From: Macrostomum lignano
Lineage: Eukaryota
DNA length: 64,000 nucleotides
Assembly (NCBI GenBank): GCA_002269645.1
Contig: NIVC01002406.1
Coordinates: forward strand, 62,001 to 126,000
Reading direction: 5' to 3'
Each line of letters begins with the position of its first letter. Within the stretch, counting starts at the first letter, position 1. Shown here piece after piece: positions 1 to 62,485 of the stretch. The notes beneath the pieces were generated by a model, which made no database searches, was not told where the DNA came from, and saw only the letters and a list, made by a program, of their open reading frames with translations. Both the position numbers and the translations under genes were made by a program.

Positions 1-3000
1 AGTGCGGTAAGCCGAACCATTTTGAAAAGCAGTGCAGATCCAAAGTCGGAAGTCAACACCACGTAGCGAAGACTGAAGATGTGCTGACGGCAGATGTCCT
101 GGCGATTGCGAACACCCTCTCAACCAGAGGAGGATCCTGTCCAACCATTCAGCTGCCGTGCTCCGTCAAGGGTAAAAGCAGGCAGATTCAGTGTCAACTC
201 GATAGGGGGGCCACTGTATATGTCATGTCGAGCAGCTTGTGGAGAAGTTTGGGTAAGCCGCGGCTGCAACCCAGTGAAGCTGTACTGATTGGCTACACGG
301 ACGACCATAAGTTCGACCTTCTAGGCCAACTCGAGCTACAAGCTGTCTGGAACGGTGGTCTGATTCAAGTCACGTTCTATGTTGTGGCATCCAACAGAAG
401 CTTCGCCTTATTGGGGCAAGATATAGTGCACATTGACCTGGAGGCAATATCGATTGGGCACTCACATGTGCTGGATTCCGGATAGGAGATGCCCGAGATC
501 GACGCTCAGACCAGGTTCAAGGCGCATCTACAGCTCAAGGATGACGCCACACCGAGGTACATGAAAGCACGCTCAGTTCTGTTTGATTTAAAGGACAAGC
601 TTCGATCAGAACTTGATGAGCTTCTGAGGGACGGAATAATTGAACCCGTGAAGTTCTCTAACTGGGCGTCTCCTATTGTACTCATCCAGAAGTCAGATGG
701 CGGTATTCGATTGTGCGTAGACTACAAGCAAACAGTAAACCCTCAGCTTGTGAACGACAGTTACCCATCGCCAACCCCAGAGGAGGCTTTTTCAACTGTC
801 ACCGGTTGTCATTTCTACTCTATTTTGGACCTGAAGAAGGCGTACCATCAAATAGAGCTGGATGAAACATCAAAGGAGTTGACAGTGATGGCCACCCCAT
901 TCGGGAATTTTCGCTTCAATTGGTTAGTCTTTAGCATCAAAACAGCGCCATCAATTTTCCAGCGGTTTATCTCTGAGGTGATTCTAGGCATCCTGGGGGC
1001 CGTGGCGTATGTCGACGATATCCTGATTGGCGGCCGAACGAAGCAAGAGCTCAATCAATGAGAGTCGGCAGTCAGAAAGCAGCTGGCATGCTACAAGCTC
1101 AAGATCAACGAGTCTAAATGCCAGTTGGTGAAGAACCGCGTCCACTTTCTCGCCTTCATCTTAGAATCTGGCATAATAAAGCCAAGTGAGGAGAAAGTTC
1201 AAGCCATCCGGGAGATGACAGCTCCGAAAAGCATTGCCAAACTGGAATCATTTCTAGGAATGATAAACTTCTCCGGTCGATTCATTAGAAATCTGGCTGA
1301 ACTGATCGAGCCTTTATCAAGGCTGAGGCGGAAGGATAGCGAGTTCGTGTGGACTAATGCAGAAGAATCTGCCTTCCAAAGGATCAAGGTGGCCCTGACT
1401 GAAGAGACCATGCTGGCGACCTATGACCCAAGTAAGCAGCTTGAACTTGAGTGTGATGCTTCACAAGTTGCAATCGGAGCAGTTCTAAGTCAAGAAGGCA
1501 TGCCAATAATATTCGTCAGCAAGGTTCTGTCACCAGCAGAAAAGAAGTATTCGCAGATTGAGCGAGAGGCTCTGGCTATTGTGTGGGCGGTCCGTCGTTG
1601 TCACCGGTTTCTATTCGGACGCGAGTTTTTGCTGGTGACGGATCAAAGGCCACTTACCTTCATCTTTGGCCACGACAGCCAGCTACCAGAGCGTGTGTCG
1701 GCGCGTCTTCAGAGGTAGGCAATCACGCTCTCTGGATACAGTTACACTATCACGTACAGAAGATCAGCCGAGATGAAGTCCGACGCACTATCGAGATTGG
1801 TTAAGCCGACGAGCACAGCGACCACTTACCATGTCAGACACGCCCCTGTCTGCGAAGGAACTTTGCTGAGTCTACAGGAGTTAAGGTGTCACAGCCGAAA
1901 GTGTCAAGAACTAACGAAACTAGTTGACGCTATCCAGACAGGACGTTTCCATACAGATGAGGTCAGAGCATACAAACCTTTAGCTAGTGAACTTTCTACC
2001 CAGGATGGCTTAGTAATTCGAGGAAACAAGCTAGTTGTCCCCGTGACGCTGAGGAGTAGAGCGGTCTCTGCAGCACACAGTGTGCACCTCGGCATTGCAC
2101 GAACCAAGTCATTGCTTTGGGAGAGCTACTGGTGGCCAGGCATGGACAAAATGGTGGAACTGCAGGTCGGGAGCTGCAGTGTTTGTAGAATGGCCAAGCC
2201 TCAGAACAGAAATTTCAGGACCTCGTGGCCCGAACCGGAAGGACCATGGACGAGAGTGCATATGGATTTCGCAGGACCTATAGAAGGAAGTTATCTTCTT
2301 ATACTGGTGGATGCTTACTCGGGCTATCCGGAGGTACACCTGACAAAAGACATGCTATCATCAACAGTTGTGAGTAGGCTGCGATGAACGTTCTCTCAAC
2401 TAGGGGTACCAAATCAGCTGGTGTCAGACAACAGCCCAAGCTTCGTCAGTGATGAGACCCGTCAATGGCTGACAAAGGTCGGTGGCAACTTGATCACAAC
2501 GCCGGCGTACCACCCTCAAAGTAATGGTTTGGCGGAACGTTTCGTGCAGACAATTAAGGAGGCCATCAAAGCAAACGGACTCAGTCAAGCAGTTATCGAT
2601 TGCTACCTGTTGTTCTATTGAGCATCTGGTGGGAAGAGCAGAGCATCACCCGCAGAACTGCTGTTCGGCAGAAAGATCCGAGCACCACTGCTTTCCAATA
2701 GGCCAACCTGGGCACCTAGCGAGCATCTAATCTACAAAGCCAGCCAACGGGCTCAAGAAGCTTCACTAGTTTGCCCAATGGGTTCAAACATGGCCACTAT
2801 CAAGGTGGGGCACGATCTGTACAAGAAGGCCCACCTGGATCAACTCCAGAGGCATAGTCCCATGCAAGTCGATAGTGAAGCAGCAGAGATCAACACCGAG
2901 GCTGACGCAGACCAAGCCGCCGGGGCGCGAGCATTGGACAGCAGTCAGAACGTTGGCAGAAGCTCCTGTGTCATTTCTGAAGACTTACAACTGCTACCAC

Positions 3001-3205
3001 CACCCACCGAGGACTCCGGAACACAGCCCTCACAGCAGCATCAACAGCTGCTAACGCCTGGTTAGCTGGAACTGACGCCTGAGGAGTTGGGCCCCAGGAG
3101 AAGTCGCCGTCTGTGTGGGAAGTCCCGCGTCAACTACAAGGAGTGAACTTGCAAGTACATCTGAACTGTTAGAGTGTGCAAGTTCATTTTGTAAAAGAAG
3201 GGAGG
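1..3205 (+). mobile_element. Ty3/Gypsy LTR retrotransposon, internal region (end of gag, pol, PPT), degenerate; runs off the window start
   Basis: Domain order is CCHC knuckle tail (CGKPNHFEKQC at 3-35), protease, RT (YVDD), RNase H (CDAS), integrase (HHCC, DFAGP, SDN, SNGLAER), which is the Gypsy order. PPT aaaagaagggagg at 3193-3205 is followed by TGTTG, the probable 3' LTR start; the LTR end could not be defined. Confidence 0.93.
3..3146 (+). pseudogene. Single-frame gag-pol reading frame broken by six in-frame stops
   Basis: ORF pieces 81, 489, 1125, 1773, 2421 and 2778 all lie in the same frame. Premature stops at 483, 1059, 1716, 2385, 2619 and 3063; natural end PRRSRRLCGKSRVNYKE* at 3146. 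The protease site reads LDRGA instead of D-T/S-G. Confidence 0.88.
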
Positions 3206-6019: not shown

Positions 6020-7054
6020 CAAGGACTTCTAGACTAACAGGACGTAAAACTCAAAGATCGTGCAATTTTTTGGAGGCCACGATTTCCTGGAATAAATACA
6101 CTGCGAAGATAGGAAAAAATCTGTTTTTCGTCACAAAATCTGTGATTGTATTTGATCTGGGGCAGTGAAGACTACCATTCTTTTAATTTAACATGCACAA
6201 CATGTTACTCTATTATATTTTCATATAGCTGTGTAGTGAAGTTTTCATTTTCATATTGTTTTCACTTTATTTCATAAGCCCAAAGTTGCAAACTCACAAG
6301 TGGCATTAGCCAAACTTTTTGTGTTGTTCTTTTTAAAATAAAGTATAAAAACATTGCAAGTAGGTACTCTTAGTCTTAAGCCATTATTGTAGGTTTAGTA
6401 ACTATACTAATTCTTAGGCCTACTAGAACTAGACCTATCACTACACTATCTAGCCTAATAAGTAATTAAATTTAGACAATGATTTTTTTATTATATATAG
6501 ATTACCAATACATAGTTTCATATGGTTGGTTACCTAGGCTTGAGAAAGCTGTATTATCAGTTTTTAAGCCAAGCCTATATTTAAGACTAAGATTTAAGAA
6601 GAATAGACTTAATCACAAAAATAGGCCCTAACCATTTTTACTAGGTATCTATAAGAAAAAGCATTGATTAGTATTTTTATAATTTTTATTTTAAAGGCTA
6701 AAAATATTATTATATTACAAATTTGAATAGCTTTTCTTTTCTTGAATTTGATATTTGGCTAGGCCTAATGCCACTTGTGAGTTTGCAACTTTGGGCTTAT
6801 GAAATAAAGTGAAAACAATATGAAAATTAAAACTTCATTACATAGCTATATGAAAATATAATAGAGTAACATGTTGTGCATGTTAAATTAAAAGAATGGT
6901 AGTCTTCACTGCCCCAGATCAAATACAATCACAGATTTTGTGACGAAAAACAGATTTTTTCCTATCTTCGCAGTGTATTTTTTCCAGGAAATCGTGGCCT
7001 CCAAAAAATTGCACGATCTTTGAGTTTTACGTCCTGTTAGTCTAGAAGTCCTTG
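6020..7054. mobile_element. Non-autonomous DNA transposon with 290-bp TIRs and 8-bp TSD, P-element-like termini
   Basis: 6020-6309 and 6765-7054 are near-perfect reverse complements. Termini are CAAGG...CCTTG. tgtaaaag is duplicated at 6012-6019 and 7055-7062. The P-superfamily call rests on the termini and TSD length. Confidence 0.88.
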
Positions 7055-13570: not shown

Positions 13571-14059
13571 TCAAGCGCCCCTCTGTACCCCCAGCTCTTT
13601 CAGCAGTCTTCCTAGTACCTTGTTAGGAGCGCACAAAATAAACCCTTCGCCCTCTCTCCCCACGCACCCACCCTCTCTCCCCAAACACCCACCCTCGGCG
13701 TTTATTCCCAACCCCAACTTTGTCTTACCAAAAATAACAGCTTTAACTAGCTTCCGAGCGATCGATTCCTTCCACCCGCTTGAAGCCCCTATATTGTCTA
13801 GTCTCCTAAGCATTTCTTTGTCCCAGCGATTCTTCTCCCCAGGAAAATCTCTATACTTAACGTCGTGCCACATGCAGACAGAGTCTAGCTCGTTCACAGG
13901 CTCATGCCCAGGATTTGGATTATTGTTTTTATCTAACTGTATTTCAAGTGGATTCAAAGGCCCACAATATTTGTACCCGGGAATTGTCCAGCCTTTGTTT
14001 GGTTGAGGAAGCTTTTCTATCAGTCCATGTGAATCTAACTTACCACCAGAGCGTTGCAT
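13571..14059 (-). CDS. Parvovirus VP1u-type phospholipase A2 domain protein (Maverick/adintovirus PLA2X-like)
   Basis: Ca-binding loop PGYKYCGPLN and catalytic helix NELDSVCMWHDVKY (HD dyad) match the parvoviral PLA2 motifs. Confidence 0.88.
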   Translation of the reverse strand: MQRSGGKLDSHGLIEKLPQPNKGWTIPGYKYCGPLNPLEIQLDKNNNPNPGHEPVNELDSVCMWHDVKYRDFPGEKNRWDKEMLRRLDNIGASSGWKESIARKLVKAVIFGKTKLGLGINAEGGCLGREGGCVGREGEGFILCAPNKVLGRLLKELGVQRGA

Positions 14060-14088
14060 TATTTTATTTAAAATTTTCTTTTTAAAAA

Positions 14089-15123
14089 ATGACAGATCAG
14101 AAACTTAAAAAACTCTACTACAGCGACAAAGGATTCTTTGTAGGCAAAAATGCCGTTAGTAAACTCATGGAGCTGAGTAAGGAACCAAAAGCTACAGTAG
14201 AAAAATGGCTCTCTAAGCAGGCTGTCTTTCAAGTCTATTTCCCACCAGTAAAATTTGAAAGGCCCCATTTCAGTATTTATAAACCTAATGAGGCGCACCA
14301 AGCAGATCTTCTGTTTCTCCCCAATGACTCAGGCTACAAGTATGCTCTTACAATTACTGACATTGCCCCCAGATATAAGGAAGCTCGCCCACTAAAGACT
14401 AAACAATCAGAAGCAGTTGCAGCCGCACTCCAAGATATTTACAAAAACTCTCCGCTCACACACCCCCAAACCCTTATGACAGACCCGGGTAAGGAATTCA
14501 TGGGTGCAGTCAAATCCCTTATGGAAAAGAAAAATACGAAGATTCGCTACGGAAGAACAGACCTGCACAGGGACCAAGCGTACGTTGAGAGATTTAATTT
14601 AACTCTAGCCAAGAGACTATTCACTAAGCAGACAGCGCAAGAACTCAAACTGAGTGCGGGGCAGTACTATACCAAGTGGAGAGAAAGACTCCCCACTGTT
14701 ATAGAGCAACTGAACAATGAAGTCACACGTATGACTGGATTGAAACCGTCCCATGCAATTAAACAAGACACTGTCGAACTTAAGGCATCTCATAGAACAG
14801 ACAACACACACAACACACACAACACGCACAACACAAAACACACCTCGAACTACCCTAAGCTTCCAGGAGTTGAATCACCATACATACTGACAAACTCTGA
14901 GTTTCTACGCTTTTTATATCTACCTGGAGAGCTAGAGAAAAACACCAAAAGAAGAGCTACAGATCCATACTTCAGCCTTGATGTACATAAAATAGACAGA
15001 CATTTTACCTCCGACTCCGGTGACTATTACTTTTTATCTCAAGCCTTTAACCCTAAATCCCCCACGCGGTCATTCACTAGAGCTGAACTCCTAGTGATAC
15101 CAGCTGACACAGAAATTAATTAA
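14089..15123 (+). CDS. Retroviral-type (rve) DDE integrase of the Maverick, intact
   Basis: HQADLL, LTITD, LMTDPGKEF and QAYVERFNLTL motifs. C-terminal RRATDPYFSLDVHKI. No chromodomain seen. Confidence 0.93.
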   Translation: MTDQKLKKLYYSDKGFFVGKNAVSKLMELSKEPKATVEKWLSKQAVFQVYFPPVKFERPHFSIYKPNEAHQADLLFLPNDSGYKYALTITDIAPRYKEARPLKTKQSEAVAAALQDIYKNSPLTHPQTLMTDPGKEFMGAVKSLMEKKNTKIRYGRTDLHRDQAYVERFNLTLAKRLFTKQTAQELKLSAGQYYTKWRERLPTVIEQLNNEVTRMTGLKPSHAIKQDTVELKASHRTDNTHNTHNTHNTKHTSNYPKLPGVESPYILTNSEFLRFLYLPGELEKNTKRRATDPYFSLDVHKIDRHFTSDSGDYYFLSQAFNPKSPTRSFTRAELLVIPADTEIN

Positions 15124-15139
15124 AATATTAAAATAAAAA

Positions 15140-15472
15140 ATGGCAAAGATTGAAACCAGAACCATCAATAAACTCAATAAAATCATTGAATCAAAGAGAC
15201 CAGGTCTTATATCAATTAAAGGTGCCAAAGTAAAAATCGATCCCGTGCAGCAAATAGTTCAATGTAATGAACAAAGACACAGCATCACAGATGAAAAGTC
15301 AGGAGGAATCCTACCATTAGCAGCTCTTATCCCAATCATTGCAGGCGCTGTAAGTGCCGCAGGTGGTGTAGCTGGAGGTGTAGCAACTGCTGTTAAAGCT
15401 GGGAATGATAGAGCCCACCAGCTAGAATTGCAAAAGATTGCAAGAGACAAAGGCAGGAGATGGGTGCCCTGA
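15140..15472 (+). CDS. Small basic protein with an adenovirus pX/mu-like hydrophobic C-terminal segment
   Basis: KSGGILPLAALIPIIAGAVSAAGGVAGGVATAV resembles adenoviral pX (GGILPLLIPLIAAAIGAVPGIASVA), judged by eye. Confidence 0.65.
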   Translation: MAKIETRTINKLNKIIESKRPGLISIKGAKVKIDPVQQIVQCNEQRHSITDEKSGGILPLAALIPIIAGAVSAAGGVAGGVATAVKAGNDRAHQLELQKIARDKGRRWVP

Positions 15473-15713
15473 TTTTGATGATTGTGATGATCATGATGAT
15501 TGTGAGCATGAAAATTCTGTAAGCAAGTCTGACATTGTCAAAGCCATCATGACACTGCACAATGCTGGGTTTACAATAATGCGCATGTGATGAGGTTTAA
15601 AACCCCACTTTATCCAGCTTCATAAACCTAACGCTACTTATAGGATGTAGAAACAGTTCAACTTTTCTATCAGGGTGGTCACCCTCAAAATGTTTTTTAT
15701 ATTTTCGAGAAAA

Positions 15714-16115
15714 ATGCCAAAAGCCAATCCAGCAAGAGATTTAGTCAACAAATATTTTTCGTCTCATTTACCCTACCCTACAACCTTACAAGACGTCTCA
15801 TTTCAGGACAAAAGTAATTTACTAAGAAAAGCATGTAAACAAAAGTTTAACACCGACCCTGGTCACCTGGGAAGCTATGAAAAACAGTTGGAAATCATCA
15901 ACCAATTAGAATCCAACCAGTATGCGCCTATACAAAATCCTGCAAAGGAACACCAAGAGAGGAGTCGCAACTTAGTTAACAAATATGAAACTCTCACTGG
16001 TGAAAAAGCAAAGTACCCACAAAATAAGCAGGAACAAGAGAAATTAGAGCAATTAATCCACTTAAAAGAGTCGGAGCTTGCCATTGAACAGATTAGTTTT
16101 GCACAGAGGAAGTGA
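15714..16115 (+). CDS. Maverick hypothetical protein, truncated by the LTR insertion
   Basis: Likely start at gagaaaaATG (15714). The stop codon is the TGA formed by the first three bases of the LTR (16113-16115). Confidence 0.55.
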   Translation: MPKANPARDLVNKYFSSHLPYPTTLQDVSFQDKSNLLRKACKQKFNTDPGHLGSYEKQLEIINQLESNQYAPIQNPAKEHQERSRNLVNKYETLTGEKAKYPQNKQEQEKLEQLIHLKESELAIEQISFAQRK

Positions 16116-18100
16116 TGGGTTTCGACCTTCGGGTCCCTTGTTAGGAAGCCTTCGGGCCTCAGGCCCAGAAGCAAATCACTTAGAGACCTGGCCCCCCACT
16201 CCTGTCAGATGGTCAGCCCCATGGTAGCTTGATCGTGTGGCGAGCAGTCTAGGTCCTATAGCTAAGAGAGGGACAGCGAGAGACAAGCAGGGAGAATTTT
16301 GAAGGTATAAATTAGCTAATCCGCAGACTAAGCTAACTCGCTGCCACCAGCTCGTGCGTCCTGGCTCACCACACCGGGACTCTCGAAATCGGGCTTCCGA
16401 CTAGAAGGGGCTTTGCACTTACCTGCCAACTAGTGTCTTTTTGCTGTCTATCTCGAAGTCATAGCCGATGATAAGGGACACTGCTGGGACTAGATCGCAT
16501 TGGCCATGCAGGTACAGAGGGGACTTGTGCAGGGGATTCTTGCAGTGGCGAGTCTATGGGGTAGCTACATGTACTATTACATTGCTAAATACGAAGATAT
16601 GTACTTTTGGCCTTCAACGCGCCAACTAGCCTCTCATAGCGCTGATGATAGACTAACTCGAACTTCAGAGACCGCATGATTCATTACCCGAGCCGCTTGG
16701 CTAACCTAGAGTGCACAAAGTACATCTCTGGCGCCGATTCTGCACTTCTGGCAGTTTTGCTCACTGATTTGGTAGATTGATCGACTGAGAACTGCCTGGC
16801 CATTGGTCCACTGTGACCGGCGCCTACTAGCTTAGCCACTCATCTGAGCCATCGGCGAACAAGGAAATAAAACCGATAAAAATAACTGTTAGATTTAACC
16901 TTCTCCTTAGATCACTTCACACCTCAGATTGAATTGGAGTTTCAGACTACTAGTAGTATTATTAAGTGATTTCTGCCTCAGTAACAGCACTACTGAACAA
17001 AATGAGCAAAAGTGTGCGCCTAATTCAGCTACTGAAACAGGGGACAGATAGGGGATCACCCAATCAAGCAAGTCTAGGTAGCCTCTCACCCAACCAATCA
17101 GAAACTCAACAGCCGGAGACCAGGAAATCCACAGTGACCGAATCGGCTTGATGCTTCGCAGCTGTAGACTCGGGATGATGCTGACACAATCTTCGCTGAT
17201 AGCTAACAGGTGATGATCTTCGCTTGATGTTCGCTGCTGACGACCGGGGGATTCGTCCTTGATGATGATGGGGGGAAGTCGCAATCCGGGGATCAAGAAA
17301 CGACGGTCGCGCTCCGGGAACCAGAAGTTGCGTGCTGGGCCCGAGCAAGAGGATGCGTCCGAGCGGGCCAAAAACTCCGGTTTAAATAGCCGCCAACTGG
17401 ACCGCAGTTTGTTATAATGGAACACGTCGATTCTGATTGGCTGAGCCGTTTTGTTAAAATGAGCGCCAAATTTTCTGATTGGCTAAGCTTGTTGCTACCC
17501 AGAATCACGTGACCGAGAGATCCTATCAGTTCCCACAGGGTCGTAAAAAGATGACAGGTGCGGCCATAAATCACTCAAAATCGCAACAAAATGATTTATG
17601 ACTTTTCGCGTAGGATTGACAGAAATTAATGAAAAAATATACATTAGAAAGCTCTTATTAAATAGAAAGTGAAGATAATGAAGAGAAATCGCTAATCGCT
17701 AATCCCAAAGTACTTTTAGGGGTAAAACGCATAGCTGTCAAAGCTGTCACACGCTTGAGTGAATCCGAACAATAGGCTCTGACCTCATAAATCTTGATGG
17801 CCTGTCAAAATGATGAGAAAAAAGCTACCGCCCGCATCCTCTCAGACCATCTGGCGCCCGTCTCAACACTGAGTGAGGCGCAGGTGGCTGTCAGACCAAC
17901 TTCGGAAGCGATGATTTACGACCCAAAAAGCTACGCCTATGTTATTATGACTACTAGTATGGCCAGACATTATATCTAGTATAGATTCTATGACAATTTG
18001 CAGAAAAAAGATAAAAATGCCCCTTGCCCACTGTTAGTAGGCAAGTAAGTTTAGAGCCCATGTGCTAGCGCGGGATTTGGGAAAAAGTGCGTCCTCATCA
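16113..18100 (-). repeat. 3' LTR, 1988 bp, TGATG...CATCA
   Basis: Inverted terminal pentamers, and homology along its length to 40153-42199. Minus-strand TATTTAAA at 17381-17388 with CCAAT boxes upstream (17436, 17477). Confidence 0.88.
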
Positions 18101-18115
18101 TATGCCCCCCTATTT
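18101..18115 (-). other. Polypurine tract
   Basis: Minus strand reads aaataggggggcata immediately before the LTR TGATG. Confidence 0.65.
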
Positions 18116-20131
18116 GTGAGTTAATCGCAGATTAACTCAAAAACAAAGAAGAAAAATGAGCGCAGTTTTGTACAAAATCGCAGCTAGCACATCACAAAGT
18201 TAGTAAAAATAATAGTTACTCACAAATAGGTACTAAAATATTAAATTAACACGCATCCCAAGAAAGGAAATCCCGAAAGAGAAAGAATTTGGGGAAGGGA
18301 AAGAATGAAATAAGAAAGGGATCAAAAGAAAGGTGCTTAAAAATAGATATCGCATTTGCCAATACAGTATTAAGTGCGAGATACATGTAAGGGAATAATA
18401 AACAGATAAATTATTGCCGCGCGAGAAGACATAGTTCAAAATGTGCGAGATGGGATAAACAGCGCATGTTCAACGAGACTAAGCTTCATTGTTCGCGTTC
18501 GAGTCAGTCTCGATTCTACCTGTTAAGCCTCTTGATGGCTTAATTCTTTTGCCGCGCGGCCGACCCGAGCCAGGATGGGCGAGGAGCCTGGGAAATGCGT
18601 TGCACATTCTCCCCTTCCGCCTGTGGAATCCACGTGCCAGGGGTTGCCGTGCTCATCTGACGGCTGCTGGCGAATGGCGACCCTCAGAGGATTAAGGGAC
18701 CCTCGAGTCATCTTTGCTGACTGGCTGAGACGCTGCTGGGGAGGATGACCTCAACCGCCTCGAGTTCGCAGGGAGATAAAAGCGACTGACCACTCGGATC
18801 ATCCGCAAATTATCATTTGCATCTCCGAGTCCTGCAACTCTCGCAACAACGTTTCGCGCGCCAGCCAAAGCCTCGCCACTGCCGCATTTGCTGACTTCGC
18901 ACCGAGCCAGACCAGCCTCCGTAGACCTCCAATCTCCAACTGGTAAGTCTCATCTCAGCTTTGCGATACTCTACCGTCCACTTCCACTCAATCAGACAAT
19001 CCCAGACCCATCCCAAAGTCTCAGCAACCTTCAGGGTACACTCCCTCCTGCTCATTTGCCCATTCAGTGCTGTGTAGGATATATATACTTTGAAATGTAT
19101 TATGAATAGAGTTTCAGATAAGAGGCAGAATAATTTTGAACACTAGTGTTATATTTTAAAAGTTCTTTCGAAGATTTTTGTCTTCAAAACTCCGCTTCAA
19201 TCGCATTCTCTTCCAAGTTTAGTTCACACAATACTATTTTGATTCACACTCAGTATTACTACGTATCAGTAGTATCGCACGGCCGCGAGTTAAGTTTTCG
19301 AATACAATAAAGAATTTCGTATTAATTCAGGCGGACCACTTGTACTTTATTTAAGATTTTACTAGCTTAATCATTCCTAATATCCACCTATATTAATCAT
19401 CTAATCTGACCTAGTACTAAATTTTGCTTACTATTAGTCTCTTTCTTCGCTTCGGCTCAGTGAGTTTAGTAACACGAGAAGTCCTACATTTCAATTTTAA
19501 CTCAGGCCAAGAATCAATTCCAAGGCTGGCATTGCATGTTCTAATTTTGAAAACATTCATGTCAAACTAGGCAAAATAAACAAGCAATCACATACACGCA
19601 CACGACACATAGTTTCCGCCACCATTTGATGAACTTTCTACGAAAAAGGAGAAAAAACGCAAAACACTACTGATATGGATACAAATAGCATGACACAACA
19701 TTTATAAAATGAGCAAGCAAGAAATTAAGCATTTTGATTTTACGCACATGTAAAATAATGACACAACATAGAAATAAATACGCGGGAATAAATAGTAAAG
19801 CAACAGTGAATATAAATATGGAAATGCATTTTCAAAGCACCAGGGGGGTATTTACAGGGGGATCAGGGAGGGTACCAAAGACATTATGAGAAAGCAATTG
19901 TTCACGCAATAAGAGGATATATTTACAAGGGGCATAGCAGCACAAAAAGAAAAGAATAGGGGGTTGAAATTTTGCTTTGGCATGACAAAAAATTTGGTTG
20001 AGAATTGAACATGAAAATAGAGGCACAGCTCGCCTACTAACCACTACTTAAGCCGAACGGTTTGAGAAAAAATAGTTTAAAATGCTTTTTCCCTAATTAA
20101 AATTTGTTCATAACCGTTCCACCTTCAATTC

Positions 20132-21307
20132 TCACACTTCTTGGTTGGCGTCTTGGCTTCTCTGATACAACACCGCCACGCTCAGTTCCCAAATCTTCCT
20201 GTCGGCATCGAGGGCGGCAGGCATCTTGAGGACCGAGCGCGGGGGGTCCTCACCGCGGTGGAACACATCATTAAGTAGGTCGTAGACGATTCTCAAGCGG
20301 AGATACCCAGCCTCGCGCACCAGCGCATTGTATAGCTGGTTCCTCTCGAGCTGCTCGGGCGCCAGCAGCCAGAAACGCTCGTTCGCCGGGACAATGATGA
20401 GGCGTTCGCGAAGGCGTCGAGGGCAGGGCTGCAAGAGTGGCAGGCCGCCCCAGTTCTCGGCAGCTTCGCCGACTGCCAACACCAGCACTGTTGTTGCCAG
20501 GCAGTCTTGCAGCGCTAGCTGCGCGGCCCACTCGCCCACTTGATGAGGCGCATAGACGTACAGCGCTTGCGTTAGATCGGTGGCTAGAGCGAACAGCCCA
20601 TCGTGGAAGACGATGACGTTGGTGCCTCGCAGGCCCAGCACAAGTCTGGCGTACATCGCCATCTGCAGAGCCGTCAGATGGACCTCGTGTCGGCTCAGCA
20701 TGGAAACGATGTTAGCCGCCGCCGCAGGGGAGAGGCCGTAGTCGACAGCCGCCGGACAGGGGAAAGTGAGCAGCTGGGCCAGGTAGAGCACCGCCCGGCC
20801 TGGGTTGCTCAGCTGCAGCGGCGCCAGCCGCTGGGTGAGATTCGGCCACCTCGTCGCTGTTGGCCACGGTCCCGCTCTTTCGATCTCGCGGAAATGCCGA
20901 CTCAGCGCTTCGTAGGCTTCGCCGAGGATCACCCGCCATAGGCTATTGTCGACGTCAGCCCATGAGTAGGCCAATTCCGTACCCATCATTGTTGCCGCTC
21001 GAGCATGGGCGGCTCTCAGGGAGTGTCGCTCGTTGATCGCTTGCTGGGCAGCGGGCGGCAGAGTGTAGTGCAGTGGGCCCTCTCCATGCAGGCGGGTGCC
21101 CAGCTGTCGTAACACCCGCTCCTTCACGCTTTGCTCGAGTTCTTCATACCTCTCTTCACTCTCGCCTTCTAGGTGTCGCAGACCATTCAGAATGGCCGGC
21201 CGCTCACCCGTGCTTCCCAGCCCGCCTCGGCTGTGCGGACTAGTAGCGCCGGATGACAGCGGTGAGTGAGCTTCCTCTTTGATAGCATTAACCGAAAAGG
21301 CTTCCAT
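20132..21307 (-). CDS. Intact 391-aa accessory ORF of the LTR element; C-terminal half possibly SGNH/GDSL-hydrolase-like fold
   Basis: Long uninterrupted GC-rich ORF with aaaATGG start and TATAAA at 21412-21417 on the minus strand. Alternating beta/alpha pattern (VIVFHDG, TVLVLAVG, LIIVPA, NQLYNALVREAG, RIVYD). The fold call is inference. Confidence 0.7.
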   Translation of the reverse strand: MEAFSVNAIKEEAHSPLSSGATSPHSRGGLGSTGERPAILNGLRHLEGESEERYEELEQSVKERVLRQLGTRLHGEGPLHYTLPPAAQQAINERHSLRAAHARAATMMGTELAYSWADVDNSLWRVILGEAYEALSRHFREIERAGPWPTATRWPNLTQRLAPLQLSNPGRAVLYLAQLLTFPCPAAVDYGLSPAAAANIVSMLSRHEVHLTALQMAMYARLVLGLRGTNVIVFHDGLFALATDLTQALYVYAPHQVGEWAAQLALQDCLATTVLVLAVGEAAENWGGLPLLQPCPRRLRERLIIVPANERFWLLAPEQLERNQLYNALVREAGYLRLRIVYDLLNDVFHRGEDPPRSVLKMPAALDADRKIWELSVAVLYQRSQDANQEV

Positions 21308-21756
21308 TTTCGCAGATGCACAAAGTTCTCTCTTACAGAAAAAGAATTATAGCTTAGCAGAATGCTTTAGCTCGCAGAAAATCGAATTGATTTACAGTTA
21401 AAGTGTTTCCCTTTATATCCGGAAAACATCAGATAACAGCAAACAAGGGGGGGTGACTCCACGCCGGAGTCTCCCTCCAATTGATACAAATCATTTGGGG
21501 CGCATAGTAGAAAAAACTCATTATGAGGGCCAATAAAACATTTGGGCTCAACAGACCGTCAACTTTTAGCGAGAGAGACAAAAAGCAAGGGTTACAATGG
21601 GGGTGCATGGGGTGCACGAGGGAGGGAAGAGAGAAGAGGAGAAGACTGGGGGGGAGAGATGAGGAATCCCAACAGACTAACTGGGGATGCCAAAAATAGC
21701 CACGGCGGATTCTCCTAAGTGAATTATAGACTCTTCAGAATTATGTTAATTAGACT

Positions 21757-22387
21757 ATGAGCTCAAAACAATTAAGAATTTCGAGCTAATTCCAATCCTG
21801 ACAGCTCTAACTCTTGTTCTATCCTTGACCTGCATTTACTTCTCCGCCTATCACTCGCAGAGGGAGCGCTGATCCTACAACAGAGCCTTGTGCTCAATAA
21901 GAAAATTCTGCACGGCACCTTCTCAGTACTCCCCACCGAGGTGGTGACCCGCGCTGACGGCCAGCGAGTGCTCTGTCCTCGCGCCGGGGTCCTCGCGCCA
22001 CCCCTCATCGAGACCACGTTCACCTGCCGGGGTCAAGCTGAGCCAGCTCAAGGAGGCAGGGGTCGCGGTCGTGGCCGAGCTCGCGGCAACAACCATTCCA
22101 GCAGCTCATCGACCCGACTCGCGACTGTGGCAGCCTCCACTCCCTACGGAGCGTACAGTGCGGGCTCTCCAGGCGCCTCGCCGGTGGTGGCCCTGGACTC
22201 CATCCAAGAGGAGCCGTCGGGCACGCCAGCCGCCACCCAGAACGCTGCACCCGCTGCCGCCGACCTTATGGTACAGCTGCAGGAACACGCCACCATGCTG
22301 CAGACAGTGCAGCACGGCTGTCCGGATCACAACCGGACGGTCGAGCTTCTGCTGCAGGCTGCCTCACGGCTCAGCGAATTACACTAG
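21757..22387 (+). CDS. Antisense accessory ORF of the LTR element (RG-rich; probable 1-nt frameshift near its 5' end)
   Basis: Frame is open from 21776 to 22387. The ATG at 21757 joins it if one A is removed near 21774. AATAAA at 22509 follows the stop. Confidence 0.5.
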
Positions 22388-22688
22388 CTTCCAGACTCAT
22401 ACGCCTACCCTTTGTGTCCATTGCTGCACCATTACTACTATCCATAAATTACTTCTCTAAACAAACTACTACCGTATTAATTTCTTTGTGCCAATATTTC
22501 TGTTCTTGAATAAACTGCTTTTCATAACTTATCATTTCATTCATAATTTTTCTTAAATTCCTAACTATTATTACTGATTAATTTGACCTAATCACTCTAG
22601 AAGTCCAACCTGTTATAATACTTTAGCCAAAGAGGGGTGGGCAAGGGGAAACCGAGTTGGGCCCCAAACCTCAAAGTTCGCAAGGAAG

Positions 22689-23183
22689 TCAACAGAATGG
22701 GAGCATTTGCCCCAATACTAGTAAATTTCTAGTGTGATAGTCCAAGACAGCAGGCGCGGCTGCCAGAAAAGAGTTGCCCAACAGAGGCCTCGTGGCGGGG
22801 TCACTGGCGACTAAAAACATTACTGGCATGGTTTCAGCCCCTAGGGTGACAATCAGCTTGGACTGACCCACAATCTCTAATCTATGCCCGCTATAGGAAT
22901 AGATAGAGACTGTAGGGGCTTCCAACCTGTCCATGTCATCATTAGTGGCCGCCACAAAGTCTCTGAAGGGCAAGATGGAGACTGCCGATCCAGAATCAAT
23001 GAGAATTCGGAGTGGCAATCTCTCCACTTGAACTTTCACATACACGTCAGCTCGAGAGCTTTTAAATGGCATAGCCTTCCTGGGAACAATGAAGTCGGGT
23101 ATGCAATTCACTTTCCTTTTGCCACCATTTGCTAAATTTGCCCTTGAAAGTCCAGAAGAGGGGTGAGTGTGGGCGCCACCCAT
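22689..23183 (-). CDS. Retropepsin aspartic protease in the -1 frame relative to gag, ending in a stop with no RT downstream
   Basis: LIDSGSAVSIL active site and PLLGNSFL C-terminal motif. The frame is open back to the slippery site at 23195-23201. Confidence 0.9.
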   Translation of the reverse strand: MGGAHTHPSSGLSRANLANGGKRKVNCIPDFIVPRKAMPFKSSRADVYVKVQVERLPLRILIDSGSAVSILPFRDFVAATNDDMDRLEAPTVSIYSYSGHRLEIVGQSKLIVTLGAETMPVMFLVASDPATRPLLGNSFLAAAPAVLDYHTRNLLVLGQMLPFC

Positions 23184-23201
23184 CCCTACTCTCAGTTTTC
23201 C
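23161..23201 (-). other. Putative -1 ribosomal frameshift signal (G_GAA_AAC plus downstream stem)
   Basis: The heptamer sits directly before the gag stop in the correct phase, and the protease is in the -1 frame. Downstream gggatgggtg...cactcaccc can pair. Confidence 0.65.
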
Positions 23202-33005: not shown

Positions 33006-33797
33006 TCAGAACTGGCCAGGGGTGCGGGCTCTGCCCCGGCCTGTGTCGTTTCCCGACGGCTGATTGCATTTCCTGGCGATGTGGCCGCGGCGGTGGCAGT
33101 TCCAGCAGGTCACCTCGCGCTGTCTCCTCGCACTGCGAATCGCGCAGGAGTCCGAAACCTCTGAGCCCAGCTTCGCCGCCAGGTCTTGGACCGTCGCCTG
33201 CAGTGAGCTGACCGTAGCCCTCAGTTCTGCCGTCTCCGCGCTGCCTGCAGCTCCGGCTGCCGCTGCAAGAGGCTGCTTGAATCCGTCCGTGGTGGCAGAA
33301 GGCAGCTCCAGTAGCAGTTGTGCCCGTGCGAGAGCATCACTCACGGTCTTGGCTGACGCGTCCGCTCTGATCTGCTTGCTGATGTCCACCGGCAGTCCGC
33401 GGATGAACTGGTGAGTCAGCATGGTGGCCGTTGCGCCTGCCTCGCTGATGCCAGCGTCCTTTAGCAGCTGCTTCAGGTGATAGAGAAAGAGCCGAGGAGA
33501 TTCGCCCGGCAGCAGCTTCCGGCTCTCGAATGCATCCAGCGCTGAGAATTGCTGGCTGTCCGGGTGAAATGCCTGGCTCAGAGCTTTGGTCACTTTGCTG
33601 TAGTCGCTCTTGCTATTCTCGTCGAGCTCAAGAAAAACAGCCAGAGCCTCACCATCCAAAAACGTTGGCAGGTGCAAATGCTTGTCATTTACCCACTTGT
33701 TGGCTGCCGCGCACAGCTCAAACCGCTGGAGCCACTCCTTGAAGTTGCCTGAGCTGAACGCCCTGGGAATCGCACGGTGACTGCCGCCCTCTGCCAT
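33006..33797 (-). CDS. gag: Gag with CCHC zinc knuckle
   Basis: Starts MAEGG right after the PBS. FKEWLQRFELCAAANKW; CWNCHRRGHIARKC. Confidence 0.88.
   Translation of the reverse strand: MAEGGSHRAIPRAFSSGNFKEWLQRFELCAAANKWVNDKHLHLPTFLDGEALAVFLELDENSKSDYSKVTKALSQAFHPDSQQFSALDAFESRKLLPGESPRLFLYHLKQLLKDAGISEAGATATMLTHQFIRGLPVDISKQIRADASAKTVSDALARAQLLLELPSATTDGFKQPLAAAAGAAGSAETAELRATVSSLQATVQDLAAKLGSEVSDSCAIRSARRQREVTCWNCHRRGHIARKCNQPSGNDTGRGRARTPGQF
33014..33054 (-). other. -1 frameshift signal: G_GGA_AAC, 6-nt spacer, 8-bp stem, possible pseudoknot
   Basis: Canonical slippery heptamer in the gag frame. ggccgggg pairs with cccctggcc. Loop ccgc could pair with downstream gcgg. Confidence 0.75.
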
Positions 33798-33802
33798 AGT
33801 AC

Positions 33803-33814
33803 GCTCTGCTACCA
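33803..33814 (-). promoter_or_regulatory. Primer-binding site complementary to initiator tRNA-Met
   Basis: TGGTAGCAGAGC lies 2 nt after the LTR terminal CA. Confidence 0.85.
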
Positions 33815-34266
33815 CTTGTAACACGCGGTATTTGGCAGCACCAAAAACACGAAGGCCCCGTGAGGCAGTGATCGCTTTATTTATGCAAGTTGAAGTTAAG
33901 CCTGCGATGTACATAGACAGCGAACGTACATTAAATCAATACGATGATTCAGCTAATTATTTGTCACGATTGCTAACAGTTCAGACTGCCTCTAAGGCAA
34001 GGAATAAAATATTACACTTGGTCACTTCAAAAATCATGCACATTTACACAACATACTCGTTTACTCTACGATGTGGATAAAAACTAAAGTGGTCTATTGT
34101 TTCGACTATAAGAATTTAGCTTCTAGACTCTAAACTAGCCATCTATAGTGTCCCTCTTCGGGGCGGCCAATACGAAAGGGACTAAAATTATTAATTTGAA
34201 TCCTTTAAAATGAAAGAAGATTTTCTTAAAAGCATTCCTTCTTCAGTTTTATAAATCACCTCTCTT

Positions 34267-34817
34267 AGCCTTGACATCTCAGCAATTCCTTCCAAGCCTC
34301 GACATCAGCAATTCCTTCCAAGCCTCGACATCAGCAGTTCCTTCCAAGCCTCGACATCAGCAATTCCTTCCAAGCCTCGACATCAGCAATTCCCCGAAGC
34401 CTTGACATCTCAGCAATTCCCCCCAAGCCTTGACATCTCAGCACTTCCCCTAAGCCTTGACATCTCAGCAATTCCCCCCAAGCCTTGACATCTCAGCACT
34501 TCTCCCAAGCCTTGACATCTCAGCAATTACCCCGAAGCCCTGACATCTCAGCAATTCCCCCCAAGCCTTGACATCTTAGCAATTCCTCCTAAGCCTTGAC
34601 ATCTCAGCAATTACCCCGAAGCTCTGACATCTCAGCAATTCCCCCTAAGCCTTGACATCTCAGCACTTTCCCCAAGAGTTGACATCTCAGCACTTCTCCC
34701 AAGCCTTGACATCTCAGCAATTCCCTCAAGCCTTGAAATCGCAGCAATTCCCTCAAGCCTTGACATCTCAGCAATTCCCCTTAACCTTGAAATATCAGTA
34801 ATTCCCCCCAAGCCTTT
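34267..34817. repeat. Minisatellite with a 26-29 bp unit (ccaagccttgacatctcagcaattccc), about 20 copies
   Basis: Seen directly. Confidence 0.95.
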
Positions 34818-35430: not shown

Positions 35431-37812
35431 ATGGAGCAACAGATTTATCAGCAGACGGTGGTGGCCGCGCCAGTGGTTGATCGCCAGTTCAACGAAGAGT
35501 GCCTTGAAGCACACAATGTCTATCGAGCGCTGCACGGTTGTCCCCCGCTGGTTTTCTCCGCCAAACTTGCCAGACAGGCTCAGAAATGGGCGGAGCAGCT
35601 GGCTATCGCTGGCTACCTGAAGCACAGTCCCAATGCCGCTGGAAACTTTGGTGAGAACGTGGCCTTGAAGATGGCACTCAGGAGTCGCGACTATCGCGGC
35701 AGTCAGGCTGCAGCCCAGTGGTACTCGGAGATCGAGATGTTCAACTTTGATGGCGAGGAGAATCAATCCAGATGCGGTAAGCAGTGAAATCGAGAAAATT
35801 GAAACATTAAAAAACAATAATATATATTTTTAATTTACTGAGAGTATTACATAATTGCACCTCTTGTTCTAAAATTATTTCTTGCTCAAGAAATCGATAA
35901 TCCGTTAGATATGGATGATCAAATTTTAGCGAGCAATAGCTCTGGTCTTTATTAATTTATCGATTCTCTAATTTCAGGGCACTTCTCGCAGGTCGTATGG
36001 AAGTCGACTCGCAAAGTTGGCTTTGGCAAAGCAGTGTCGGAAGAAGATGGGAAAATGTTCGCGGTGGGACACTACTTCCCACCTGGCAACATGCTGAACT
36101 GCTGGGTAGCTAATATCCCGCCGCCTCTATCCGGACAGATCAACATACCCAGCCACGAAGACATAAGTGAGACTTAAACTTGTTTTTGGCAATAGACAAT
36201 CAACCTATTTTTGTTGAAACGTGCTGCAACATGACACGCAGCCTTATATTAAGCTTAAATTTTACGCTGCCAATTCATGACTCGATTTTCAGTGGGTGCT
36301 GACGTGTCCCAGTCCGCTACGAAGAAGTTCAGCTCCAATCAATCGCTGGTGGATGACTCGAACCCTGCAAGCCGTCTTCTACTCACAGCATCACAGGAGT
36401 TTGGCGATTTGACGCAATTTGAACCCAAGCCAAAGGATTCGCAGGATCGGCAGGTTGGCAGCTTCTGATCAGATTCTTTGAAACGTTTTGGAAATTAGTT
36501 TAACCAGGGACGCGATAGTTGAAGTAACGGTAGTGCACGGGTTGGACTTGTAGTTTTTTGCCATAAAGTGATACTGATAATTTTAATCGATTTCATACTA
36601 TCCTTCTTTAGATCGGAAAATCCACAAAAACGCGAATACTAAACGGCGAAAAGTCTTTGATTATCACCGTGACCTTCATGCGTCCCGACGGTAGTCGCTA
36701 CCAAGTTACTGATCAGATTGCAGTACAGGATTCCTCGGGGCTTATACCCACTGGCAACCGCCACCACCACCACCACCACCATGAGGTTTATGACGATGAT
36801 AATGACGGCGAAGACACCAACTGCACCGGATTCTCGCCCAGTAGATTTGCAGCCGAGATGCTCCAGGCGCACAACAAACTGCGAGAGCGGCACAAGGTGC
36901 CTGAGCTGCACCGTTCCGACTCACTAAATAGCCTGGCTCAGAAATGGGCTGAGCAGCTGCTGCTGGACGGAAATTCGCTTCGCCGATGCGAGTCACCTGA
37001 GGCCCGCAGTCTAGGCCAGAGCGTGGCGCGGCGTCCGGGCAGCTGGACAGCCCTGCGGCCAGCTCCGCCTGGGCTGGGACCGGCTGCTCAGCTGGCGAGG
37101 CAGTGGTACAGCGAGATGAAGGGTTTCGACTTTTCCAGGCTTGGCGACGAGACACGTTGCGAACTTAATGGAGGTGATGTTTCTTGCATTTTTCTTCTAA
37201 ACGTATACCTGTACAATTAGATGGATGAAATCTGTCCTAAATCCTAGCTTTGTCATCCATGCATGTTTTCAACGACAATTAGCAACCTAATTTGCTGCAG
37301 AAAATTCTTTTTTCACAACTGTATTTCATTTAATTTTAAGTAAAACAGGACAAACCTGCAGACTGCAAAAACAAAAAACGGTAGGCGCGAAAAGTTGGAG
37401 CTATAATTACAGGCGTTTAATTTCTATATTTCTATTCTAGAGAATTCTAGTGGTTTCTGGGATTTATTTGCCATTTATTGCACTTTTACGTATGGGTGGT
37501 GTTTTTGCTGCGTCTTCAGACTTGTTTACTCAACGGTACAACCAGGAAAAACTTGAAGACTTATTAATTTTGTAATTGTATTGATCTTGTAAAAAACGCA
37601 ACAACATTTTCACTGCAGGTCACTTCACTCAAATGGTGTGGCGGGCAACCAAGAAGCTGGGCGTTGGCTGTGCAGTTGACGCCAACACCGGGAACGCATG
37701 CGCCGTGTGTTTCTATCACCCCTGCGGCAACATAGCCGGCCAATTTTCCGACAATGTCCCTCCTCCATACGATAATGGACTTGATAAAGGACTTTCAACT
37801 CCGGAATCTTGA
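35431..37812 (+). CDS. Host gene: tandem CAP/SCP-domain protein, GAPR-1/GLIPR2-like; exons 35431-35776, 35978-36166, 36293-36453, 36612-37173, 37619-37812
   Basis: All four GT-AG introns keep the frame. Domain 1: HNVYRALHG, GENVA, QWYSE, GHFSQVVW, YFPPGN. Domain 2: HNKLRERH, QWYSE, GHFTQMVW, YHPCGN. An in-frame stop lies upstream of the ATG. Confidence 0.9.
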
Positions 37813-40152: not shown

Positions 40153-42199
40153 TGATGGGTGTAGCTTCGGGCCTCGGAACTCAGAAATGAATCACTTAAA
40201 GCTCCGGCCTCTCACTCCTGTCAGATGGTCAGCCCCGTGGTAGCAAGATTGTGGGCGAGCAGAAAGGTCCTATAGCTAAGAGAAGACAGCGAGAGACAAG
40301 CAGGGAGAATTTGAAAGGTAGAGATTAGCTAATCCACAGATTAACCAACCCGCTGCCACCAGTCCGTGCGCCCCGGCTCACCAAACCGGAGCTATCGAAA
40401 TCGGACTTCCGACTAGAGGGGCACTGCACTTACCTGCCATCTAGTGTCTTTTAGCTGTCTATCTCGACGTCATAGCCGAATAGAAGGGACACTACTGGGA
40501 CTAAGATCGCATTGGCCATGCAGGGACAGAGAGGACTTTTGCAGGGGGTTCTTGCGCTGGCGAGCCTTTATACACGCTGGCGAATTCCCAGAAGTACATG
40601 TACAAGTACACGTAACTGCACACCTTTGGCACTAAATGTGTTAACGCGTCGACAGATAGCGATGATGTAGGTGTATTGCCGCATTTGGAGACCTTTAGAC
40701 TAACATTTAACTCGTTTTAGCCGCTTAGCTGCCTGAGACTGTGCGAAAGCACCAGTCTGGCACTTAGGTTGCATGCATGCTTATCATGATTGCTTAGATC
40801 GACTGATTGACTGGGAACTGTGCCGCTTCCGGTCCACTGTGACCTCTGCCCCTAGATCTAGCCACTCATCTCAGCTGGCATTGCGAAAAAGAAAGAAAAC
40901 ACTAAGTCTTTAACTTCCAGATTTAACTTTCTCACTTAATGCGCAATCCTAAACACCTTAGATTGAATCAGAGCAAATGGCTACTTTTAGTATTATATGA
41001 AACTTCTGCCTCGAGTTTGGCACGCAAAAAGCAAGTAAGCAAAAGTGCAAATCCTATCAGACTATAGGAAGGGGTCAGACAAAGGGTGCACCCAGTTAAG
41101 CAGGTCAAGAAAGCCTCTCACCAAACCAATCAGAGGACCTAACTGCCGGTAGCCAAGGGATCCGCAGAGACCGAAGCGCTCGGATGGGATGCTGCTGCTG
41201 ATCTTAACTGACGAGTGCCGCCGGTACTCTTCACTTGCCGGTTGTCGTTGCTGCTCTCAGATCACTGCCGGGAGATATTGATTATGCTTCTCAGGGGGAA
41301 CTTAGCTGTTGAAGCCGAAACTGCCGGGAGAAGGGGGATCAGGTCGGCAGGACCGCAGGGAGAAGAGCCTGAAGGCAATATCAGGCCAAGTCGAGCTCCC
41401 GAGACGGCAGGGTTACTTTCGAGCGCGGGTCGAGTTGCCGCCTTTTATAGCTCTCATGTGGCTGATTTGTTATAACGCGCGCCGAATTTTCTGATTTAAA
41501 ACGTATCTTGGCTGAGAGCTTTCGTTAAAATAGGCGCCGAATTTTCCGATTGGACGAGCCGGGGGCAGTCAGGTCGTCTCTGATTGGCTGAGCTCAAGAC
41601 CCCAAAACCCACCCCACCAGGTGGCCTTCAGACCCCAGGGAAGTTGACAGGTGCGGTCATAAATCATGTACGTGCAAAGCATAATAAAAGTCACTTGTCT
41701 TGACATCCTGGCGCCAAGAGTGACTGCAAAACGCCCATAAATCAAGGGAGAGGGTAACAGAGCGAGTGGGGAGAAAGCTGGAGAGACCTCTTTGACCCAG
41801 ACAGGCTGGAGCCAAAAGTGACAGCTAGACCATCATAAATCACTAAAAATAGTGAAAAAGTCACAAATCACTGAATCAGGGGGGTCAGAATGAGATCAAA
41901 AACATTCCTCCCAGACTTAGTGTCGCCTGTCTAGACTGTTAGAGGTTAGAGGTCAATCCGTCGATCAGACCCAGACAGTCTGACCTTCAAAGATGCGTAA
42001 ACAACCCAAAATTAGAATCCTAAGGGAAGTACATTGAGTATCTAACATAATTAATAATAATGTCAATAATTAGTGTAGAACCCAGCCTAAGATGAGAGAA
42101 TAGGGAGAAAGTCCTAAGCTAGCCTACTGACAGTAGGGGAAAGAACGCATCGGAGCAAAATGTGCGGTTTTAAGATTGAAAAAAGATGCGTCCTCATCA
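40153..42199 (-). mobile_element. Solo LTR (2047 bp), related to the LTR at 16113-18100
   Basis: TGATG...CATCA termini. 4-bp TSD cata at 40149-40152 and 42200-42203. Minus-strand TATAAAA at 41443-41449. Confidence 0.9.
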
Positions 42200-58629: not shown

Positions 58630-58775
58630 GAAATTGTGCCTGCGGCGCTGAAATAAGTGCAGCTACAGCGCTAAAATAAGTGCAGCTGCGGCGCTAAAAT
58701 AAGTGCAGCTGCGGCGCTAAAATAAGTGCAGCTACAGCGCTAAAATAAGTGCAGCTGCGGCGCTAAAATAATCGC
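58630..58775. repeat. Tandem repeat of about 24 bp (gcgctaaaataagtgcagct...) inside the MULE
   Basis: About six copies seen directly. Confidence 0.85.
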
Positions 58776-59437
58776 TGGCAACATCGATTCTAAAAAAAAA
58801 TGTTGAAAATAATAATTGCTGACCATATTGACCAGGAAAGTCAAAGGAAAGACGGGGAAAGGACGACGTGAGGCCACATTAAGTTTTTAAATTGCATAGT
58901 TTGCTTTTCAGAACTTGCTTTAAACGTTTGTTGCTATGCTACGTAAATAGGCAATTCCAGTATTTAATCTTTCGTCATTGTTAGATGGTTGATTAGCACC
59001 TTTGATGGTTCAGTGTTGCAAAACAGTAAAGCTCGTTAAGTGAACCAATTGGGCTTAGTGGATCGAATTTTGATATCTACATGTACGAGTATTTAATTAC
59101 TAACAATGCTAATTCTGGAATGCCAAGCACCAATGATTTGGTTACGCGATAATTGCTACCATGCTAAAGCAAAATCATTGCTAGCAGAGAAGCATTGCTC
59201 GTACGGTGATATAATGTTTGTTTTTGACACGACACGACATTAGGGTTAGCAAAGCAGAACAACGGATTGCGTATGAAATATGAATGCGGATGAATTTATA
59301 AAGACTCGTGGTATCTGAGGCGCCAATACGACTATATAACTTCTAGCAAACTCGAGCGATAGTTCTTCGAATTCTAGACGCATGCATATTCACAGCTCTG
59401 CTGGTTCTTACCTTTAATCAGTCAAAATAGTTATTTC

Positions 59438-62400: not shown

Positions 62401-62485
62401 CCGATATTGGGCAGAGTTCGATTCTGGCAACCGAACGGTACGACAGCTTCTTCGAGCCTGTGGTCGGCTGTGTAATCCGAAGTGA
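59438..62485 (+). CDS. PHD-finger + FLYWCH + MULE DDE transposase, 679 aa; exons 59438-59540, 59778-60973, 61745-62485
   Basis: Spliced length of 2040 nt stays in frame. PHD CPKC..CDRC..HRLC..CPNC; FLYWCH-like YYRC...C...H.H; catalytic MDGTF, LDFE, GCNFHW and NDLEGWH. Confidence 0.9.
59870..60231 (+). repeat. 57-bp coding tandem repeat x6.3 (EAAADEESEQVATASESED)
   Basis: Near-identical in-frame units seen directly. Confidence 0.95.
61085..61635. repeat. CT-rich microsatellite in MULE intron 2
   Basis: Seen directly; source of the spurious L/S/P and E/R/G ORFs. Confidence 0.92.

Follow-up and report, generated by a model that had tools for sequence, protein, structure and literature searches.

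The window (the whole stretch of DNA that was analysed, 64,000 nucleotides) contains a minus-strand open reading frame (ORF) of 391 codons that lies downstream of a gag-like and an aspartic protease frame (table 1). As claimed in an earlier reading of the DNA letters (the original prediction), the frame is intact from ATG to stop. None of 2000 base shuffles of the ORF DNA contained a stop-free frame of 391 codons (median longest 144, maximum 390 in one shuffle), the codon-position GC content is 0.70/0.46/0.70, and the GC content rises to 0.61–0.65 across most of the ORF compared with 0.32–0.43 in its 3' flank. On these three grounds the ORF looks like a real gene. The TATAAA predicted about 105 bp upstream was found 110 nt upstream of the ATG. 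With 66 occurrences in the window when both strands are counted (0.52 per kb per strand), the hexamer is so frequent that it is weak evidence alone. An AATAAA is located downstream of the ORF at 19351.

Table 1. Features of the element, its optional block and the adjoining host site (positions in the window; residues are those of the 391-aa protein)
Feature	Position	Strand	Remarks
Candidate 3' LTR (TG...CA)	18102..19040	−	Multi-copy; left end about 18082-18102
PPT-like run	19041..19053	−	Directly before TG at 19040
Optional block, 2,344 bp	20079..22422		Both frames (391-aa ORF, 203 codons) inside; sister copy carries 22 other letters instead
Orphan 391-aa ORF	20132..21307	−	ATG at 21307, stop at 20132, no internal stop
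N-terminus of ORF, disordered	residues about 1-35		
Helical region, predicted	residues about 35-225		Low-confidence models
Acidic-then-basic helix, predicted	residues 41-76		Inside helical region
Alpha/beta domain, predicted	residues about 226-388		Low-confidence models
TATAAA, candidate internal ORF promoter	21412..21417	−	Hexamer start 110 nt above ATG
Opposite stop-free frame, 203 codons	21776..22384	+	GC-rich, RG-rich stretch; lies between protease and ORF
Aspartic protease frame (DSGS), in −1 frame	22689..23201	−	Pfam gag-asp_proteas E 5e-4, below cut-off
Slippery-site-like heptamer	23195..23201	−	Directly before gag stop; in register for −1 shift into protease
Gag-like ORF, 449 aa	23192..24541	−	PNMA E 0.037, below cut-off; no CCHC knuckle
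PBS-like stretch	24542..24559	−	Directly upstream of gag ATG; TGG two letters after CA; no tRNA assigned
C-terminal part of presumed Polinton/adintovirus-type DNA polymerase B	24564..25817	+	Host site, not element

Neither half of the ORF matched Pfam at up to E 10, and nothing was found in NCBIfam or PHROGs. Against PDB sequences the best match had E 0.31 in one search and there was none in another. Homologues were absent from the 90% clusters for both the whole protein (lengths 215–685) and residues 205–391 (lengths 102–328), and an exact look-up of the protein and the searches of viral contigs, phages and plasmids were all blank. Two HMMER hits among 1.84 billion representatives were rejected as long bacterial repeat proteins in which many weak stretches add up, and the sole metagenome locus matched was rejected as an alternative frame among bacterial genes. 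The ORF is without detectable homologue in the searches that were run.

It is highly improbable that the ORF encodes a divergent envelope or fusion protein. Its location 3' of the protease would fit, as would one borderline hydrophobic stretch (best 19-residue hydropathy window 1.64, residues 261–279). However, this stretch overlaps a predicted core strand, the N-terminus is hydrophilic and, judged by eye, lacks a signal peptide as predicted, and the hydropathy and motif scan found one N-glycosylation sequon, three cysteines and neither an R-x-[KR]-R furin site nor a C-terminal transmembrane anchor. The view that the ORF is not a classical env therefore stands.

The gag-protease element and its host site

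The gag-like ORF has an RG-rich N-terminus and contains RG-rich and RD-rich stretches. A search for longer relatives of its residues 80–330 found none, which is weak evidence. No significant hairpin was found downstream of the slippery-site-like heptamer (z −0.02). The protease frame stops at 22689, where reverse transcriptase (RT) would begin, and a tblastn search for RT, RNase H and integrase in 18000–24600 with the window's own frames gave nothing better than E 0.8. Rfam and ARAGORN returned nothing within the window. A contig from a second organism (organism B) matches 22476–24564 with 62 differences and 7 gaps and includes the protease stop together with some 210 letters of non-coding DNA beyond it, showing that the gag-protease-stop layout and the non-coding tail are common to both organisms. 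By its gene content the element is a gag(-protease)-only, TR-GAG-like element without RT, RNase H and integrase, with gag and protease matches to Pfam that are below the curated cut-offs.

Since no pol remnant was found in 18000–24600, the ORF sits where pol is missing and not behind pol. It does lie 3' of the protease, but the label "env position" given to it is misleading. The description of the ORF as lying between the protease and the 3' LTR stands for the protease only: no LTR pair flanks the element in the window, the 3' LTR is a candidate, and the 203-codon plus-strand frame, previously unmentioned, lies in between. The PPT-like run and the TG next to it suggest a 3' LTR from 19040 to about 18102; such sites have a density of 0.22 per kb per strand across the window. 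A joint from 24564 to this LTR is not among the joints listed (15 of 50). The organism-B contig extends 1,920 letters beyond 24564, and the depth table gives no sign of their placement on 18102–19040. The broader claim that the ORF is an accessory gene of an LTR-type element holds.

Where the 5' LTR would be, the element adjoins the C-terminal part of a DNA polymerase B gene (polB), which is presumed to be such from its sequence motifs and from neighbouring Pfam matches. The usual sequence upstream of this polB piece appears as loose ends at 24564 in two sequencing runs (X6 and X11), and none of the contigs listed bridges the junction between the element and polB. Polinton/adintovirus-like genes flank the insert on both sides (13571–16115 and 24564–30493) and comprise a PLA2-like gene (E 4e-13), an rve integrase, protein X/mu (E 2e-7), the polB C-terminus, an adenain-like protease and an A32-like ATPase. 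This Polinton-like element has a very high run depth, is interrupted at 16113 and 24564, and its N-terminal polB part is missing in the window. The gag-protease element is nested in the Polinton-like element.

A repeat from 16113 to about 18080 was considered as the LTR of the element and rejected on account of a depth more than 100-fold that of gag; it is a different, far more abundant family. The repeat is about 2 kb long, contains no long ATG-started ORF, is also present in organism B and reaches roughly 1,500–3,000 times the lowest local depth in run X1. A copy is found at 40165–41600 (73% identity over 40165–41178), two CCAAT boxes and a TATA-like site on the minus strand are common to both copies, and a 16573→16113 joint suggests tandem forms.

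Other parts of the window contain further mobile and host sequences. Pieces of other LTR elements are located at 489–2387 (plus strand), where RT, RNase H and integrase are divided among individual ORFs (RVT_1 E 1e-15), and at 33006–33914 (minus strand), where another gag, which has a zinc knuckle, was found. Exons of a host CAP/SCP-domain gene are found at 35431–37220 (plus strand, CAP E 6e-13), with an array of 27–28-nt tandem repeats upstream at about 34250–34810. An element at 57764–63438 has inverted arms of about 230 bp (96–100% complementary) that enclose FLYWCH-containing frames and frames which we take to be MULE-like, a 57-nt coding repeat and a CT-rich tract. A MITE-like 290-nt inverted repeat (99% complementary, arms 455 nt apart) is located at 6020–7054.

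The 2,344-bp block and its sister copy

Contigs that join 20078 to 22423 with 22 unrelated letters between them were found in two of the four runs compared (X1 and X6, from two studies), at depths of 171 and 24, respectively, which are near the lowest depths of the region. The joint reveals a sister copy from which 2,344 bp are absent, including the ORF with its upstream region and the opposite 203-codon frame. The right border of the block is bridged by one contig in each of the two runs (X1 record 3, X6 record 28), and the block-bearing form is therefore real there. The depth over 20912–22446 is 218–241 in X1 and 26–47 in X6, compared with 383–647 and 71–104 over the 3' half of the ORF and 2357–3112 and 388–419 over most of gag, all of these being summed contig depths and not copy numbers. 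In both DNA runs the depth of the region reaches its minimum over the 5' half of the ORF, so that the complete block may be present as roughly a single copy. Variants without gaps were identified for the 3' half of the ORF, one of 367 nt with 9 differences in X11, which may be an RNA run (record 11), and one of 217 nt with 5 differences in X6 (record 24).

The main rival to a functional role is that the block is passenger cargo, a young piece of another element that was captured or recombined and does nothing for its carrier. This is a serious alternative, although on balance we consider it unlikely. It would account for the roughly single-copy depth over 20912–22446 next to the far higher depth of gag, for the absence of the block from one sister copy with 22 unrelated letters at the joint, and for the organism-B contig, which departs from the window at 22476. 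On the other hand, the ORF has a strong codon-position bias, its own TATA and the downstream AATAAA, and its 3' half exists in gap-free variants. Furthermore, a gain of the block here and its loss from the sister copy account equally well for the joint. A nested DNA transposon as the origin of the block was rejected because the block has no terminal inverted repeats (10/40 matches in a comparison of its ends), and the lack of such marks also speaks against the cargo explanation.

The second frame of the block displays a codon-position GC content of 0.68/0.53/0.66 and its middle is predicted to be disordered. It gave a single low-complexity match to Pfam, below the cut-off. The frame has no early ATG but acceptor-like AGs at 21860 and 21926, and its expression would require splicing or a non-AUG start. 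A leader exon could come from the candidate LTR, which has a plus-strand TATA-like site (18775) and a donor-like site (18942).

Fold of the C-terminal domain

The secondary structure of the protein was taken solely from low-confidence structure models, in which the C-terminal domain is a five-stranded alpha/beta domain. All five sequence motifs on which the proposed SGNH/OSK-like fold was based are present (starting at residues 231, 273, 303, 323 and 339, span 231–343). Their order, together with the order of strands and helices in the models, fits an SGNH-like domain by eye when compared with SGNH motifs. A captured SGNH domain that lost its Ser, Asn and His is the most likely option, with a probability that we place slightly short of even. 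The fold is neither shown nor excluded, with no confident model, no SGNH chain among the fold-search matches listed, no Pfam match up to E 10 and scores against a bacterial SGNH profile that stayed within those of shuffles.

The ORF scored −1.4 bits against an SGNH profile built from bacterial sequences only, without retroelement or OSK sequences, and 325 of 1000 shuffles scored equal or better; with hhalign, 89/150 and 81/150 shuffles scored as high as the ORF. As a control, the 21 best-conserved columns were masked in 15 held-out bacterial SGNH domains, and every one of these domains still outscored at least 199 of its 200 shuffles. The G-D-S of block I with the catalytic Ser is absent, as predicted, its counterpart by eye being HDG at residues 235–237, and the G-x-N-D of block III is absent from the ORF, which has GEAA at 280–283. 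The spacing between blocks I and III is 45, whereas its median is 65 among the bacterial SGNH domains considered (52 of 65) and it is 52 in the LINE protein ZfL2-1 ORF1p according to the residue numbers given for that protein (PMC3905857). The predicted absence of DxxH was incorrect in that DVFH is present at residues 347–350. This sole DxxH is not at the usual catalytic spacing for block V, however, as it lies 67 residues after G280 compared with 77–138 in 52 of 65 bacterial domains, and the residues at a distance of 79 from the block III equivalent read VLKM. Judged by these motifs, the protein does not belong to the active SGNH/GDSL hydrolases.

A C-terminal domain from another alpha/beta family, for example a dead or active HAD phosphatase, is an improbable alternative. 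The nearest named ESM Atlas clusters of both the whole protein and residues 205–391 are Salt_tol_Pase, ISN1 and Hydrolase_3 (0.75–0.80), which we take to be HAD-type, and the stretches VIVFHDGLF and VLAVGEAAEN presumably resemble HAD motifs I and IV. Atlas scores below 0.9 are leads only, however, with shuffled proteins reaching 0.8 a third of the time, and 571 of 1000 shuffles scored as high as the ORF against a HAD profile of 22 sequences. The D-x-D nucleophile of motif I is absent (FHDG at 234–237, with a His at the position of the nucleophile Asp) and the two motifs are just 45 residues apart. The fold searches with both low-confidence models gave no SGNH chain and no canonical HAD-core match among the matches listed, an absence that excludes nothing; one HAD-type phosphatase at rank 43 of one search matched on helices only. 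Two outcomes that the original prediction had named as contrary evidence thus occurred in part, in that no confident model was obtained and one sister copy lacks the ORF.

The strongest form of the original prediction, an Oskar-like RNA-binding domain that takes the RNA of the element into the germline, is very unlikely. No family of Pfam, in which the OSK and LOTUS models are presumably included, matched either half of the ORF up to E 10, neither OSK nor an upstream LOTUS. The fold is putative, a domain that has lost its catalytic residues need not bind RNA, and the net charge of residues 225–385 is −2, so that the C-terminal domain is not basic.

Possible role and comparison with known systems

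It was observed directly that the frame is intact, that the searches gave no homologue, that RT, RNase H and integrase are missing and that a sister copy lacks the block. Building on these observations, we tentatively favour an explanation in which an optional block of a pol-less gag-protease retroelement carries the ORF as an intact gene whose product is a soluble, non-catalytic binding adaptor for the particle or RNA, although we would not give it an even chance. The element would make Gag and, via a −1 frameshift, Gag-protease, and an autonomous partner would supply reverse transcription and integration. The ORF would be transcribed from its own internal TATA promoter. The helix predicted with low confidence near its N-terminus (7 acidic and 2 basic residues in 41–58, 2 acidic and 4 basic in 59–76) may oligomerise the protein, and the similarly predicted alpha/beta domain may bind a ligand, membrane or partner protein rather than hydrolyse a substrate. 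The near-neutral charge of this domain (−2) would count against lipid or RNA binding specifically. The protein is probably dispensable because a copy exists without the ORF. A bolder version, in which pol was replaced by a bidirectional two-gene module whose products, a catalytically dead SGNH protein and an antisense protein rich in RG, jointly direct the RNA or the particles to germ cells or stem cells as an independent Oskar-like invention, is a long shot.

Extra ORFs are common in LTR elements and most are without known function; from this perspective the ORF is one more orphan of moderate interest. More notable is that a pol-less element retains a frameshift-linked gag-protease layout that is common to a second organism. 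In addition, natural copies with and without an accessory block occur in one species, so that their expression, silencing and copy success can be compared directly.

The closest parallels to the layout are non-autonomous elements. The TR-GAG elements of plants are described as LTR retrotransposons with only gag or gag and aspartic protease (PMC6022998), as is the case here, and the rotifer element TelKA2n kept an extra ORF although most of pol is gone (PMC5408684). Unlike these, the present element resides in an animal-like genome, has its protease in the −1 frame and carries an optional block with two frames, and its terminal repeats were not seen as a pair. Plant Retand elements are reported to carry extra ORFs in antisense orientation that are located between pol and the 3' LTR (PMC11963269). 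The 203-codon frame similarly runs in the opposite direction within the 3' portion of an LTR element, but it is predicted only, belongs to a different kingdom and has no sequence link to Retand.

The acidic-then-basic helix recalls the LINE protein ZfL2-1 ORF1p (PMC3905857), in which a dimerising coiled coil with acidic then basic heptads is combined with an SGNH domain that binds acidic phospholipids via a basic face, with a proposed role in RNP assembly on membranes. The guess of an oligomeric binding adaptor is based on this likeness, the orphan protein being predicted to carry such a helix ahead of its C-terminal alpha/beta domain. ZfL2-1 ORF1p is, however, an active SGNH esterase that replaces gag, whereas the orphan ORF occurs together with gag, has no catalytic triad and is close to neutral in charge.

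A search of the literature for a dead SGNH accessory ORF in gypsy elements, with a coverage mostly outside subscription journals, listed no paper whose title or abstract appears to describe the present layout. The nearest case is the GDSL/SGNH ORF3 of the Vesta LTR elements of bdelloid rotifers, which has intact catalytic residues and no transmembrane segment, together with the catalytically dead GDSL derivatives of Athena-L (PMC5408684). These are soluble non-env extra ORFs near the 3' end that are present in some families only, which is also true of the orphan ORF. Vesta-type ORF3s are located behind a full pol, have invariant S, G, N and H in LTR elements and were identified with HHpred. 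The present element, by contrast, has no pol, and its ORF is without the catalytic residues and has a putative SGNH fold.

The precedents named in the original prediction, SGNH ORFs in Ngaro elements (amphibian elements, 10.1101/2021.08.05.455354) and the dead OSK domain of Oskar (10.1101/2025.05.02.651258), are confirmed by both sources and illustrate SGNH cargo in retroelements and a dead SGNH domain, respectively. Unlike Oskar, the ORF has no detected similarity to any Pfam family and, unlike in Ngaro, its surroundings showed neither a tyrosine recombinase nor split repeats. If its domain is a dead SGNH domain, the ORF would represent an LTR-element case of the reuse of SGNH as a binding module, beside Oskar and Athena-L.
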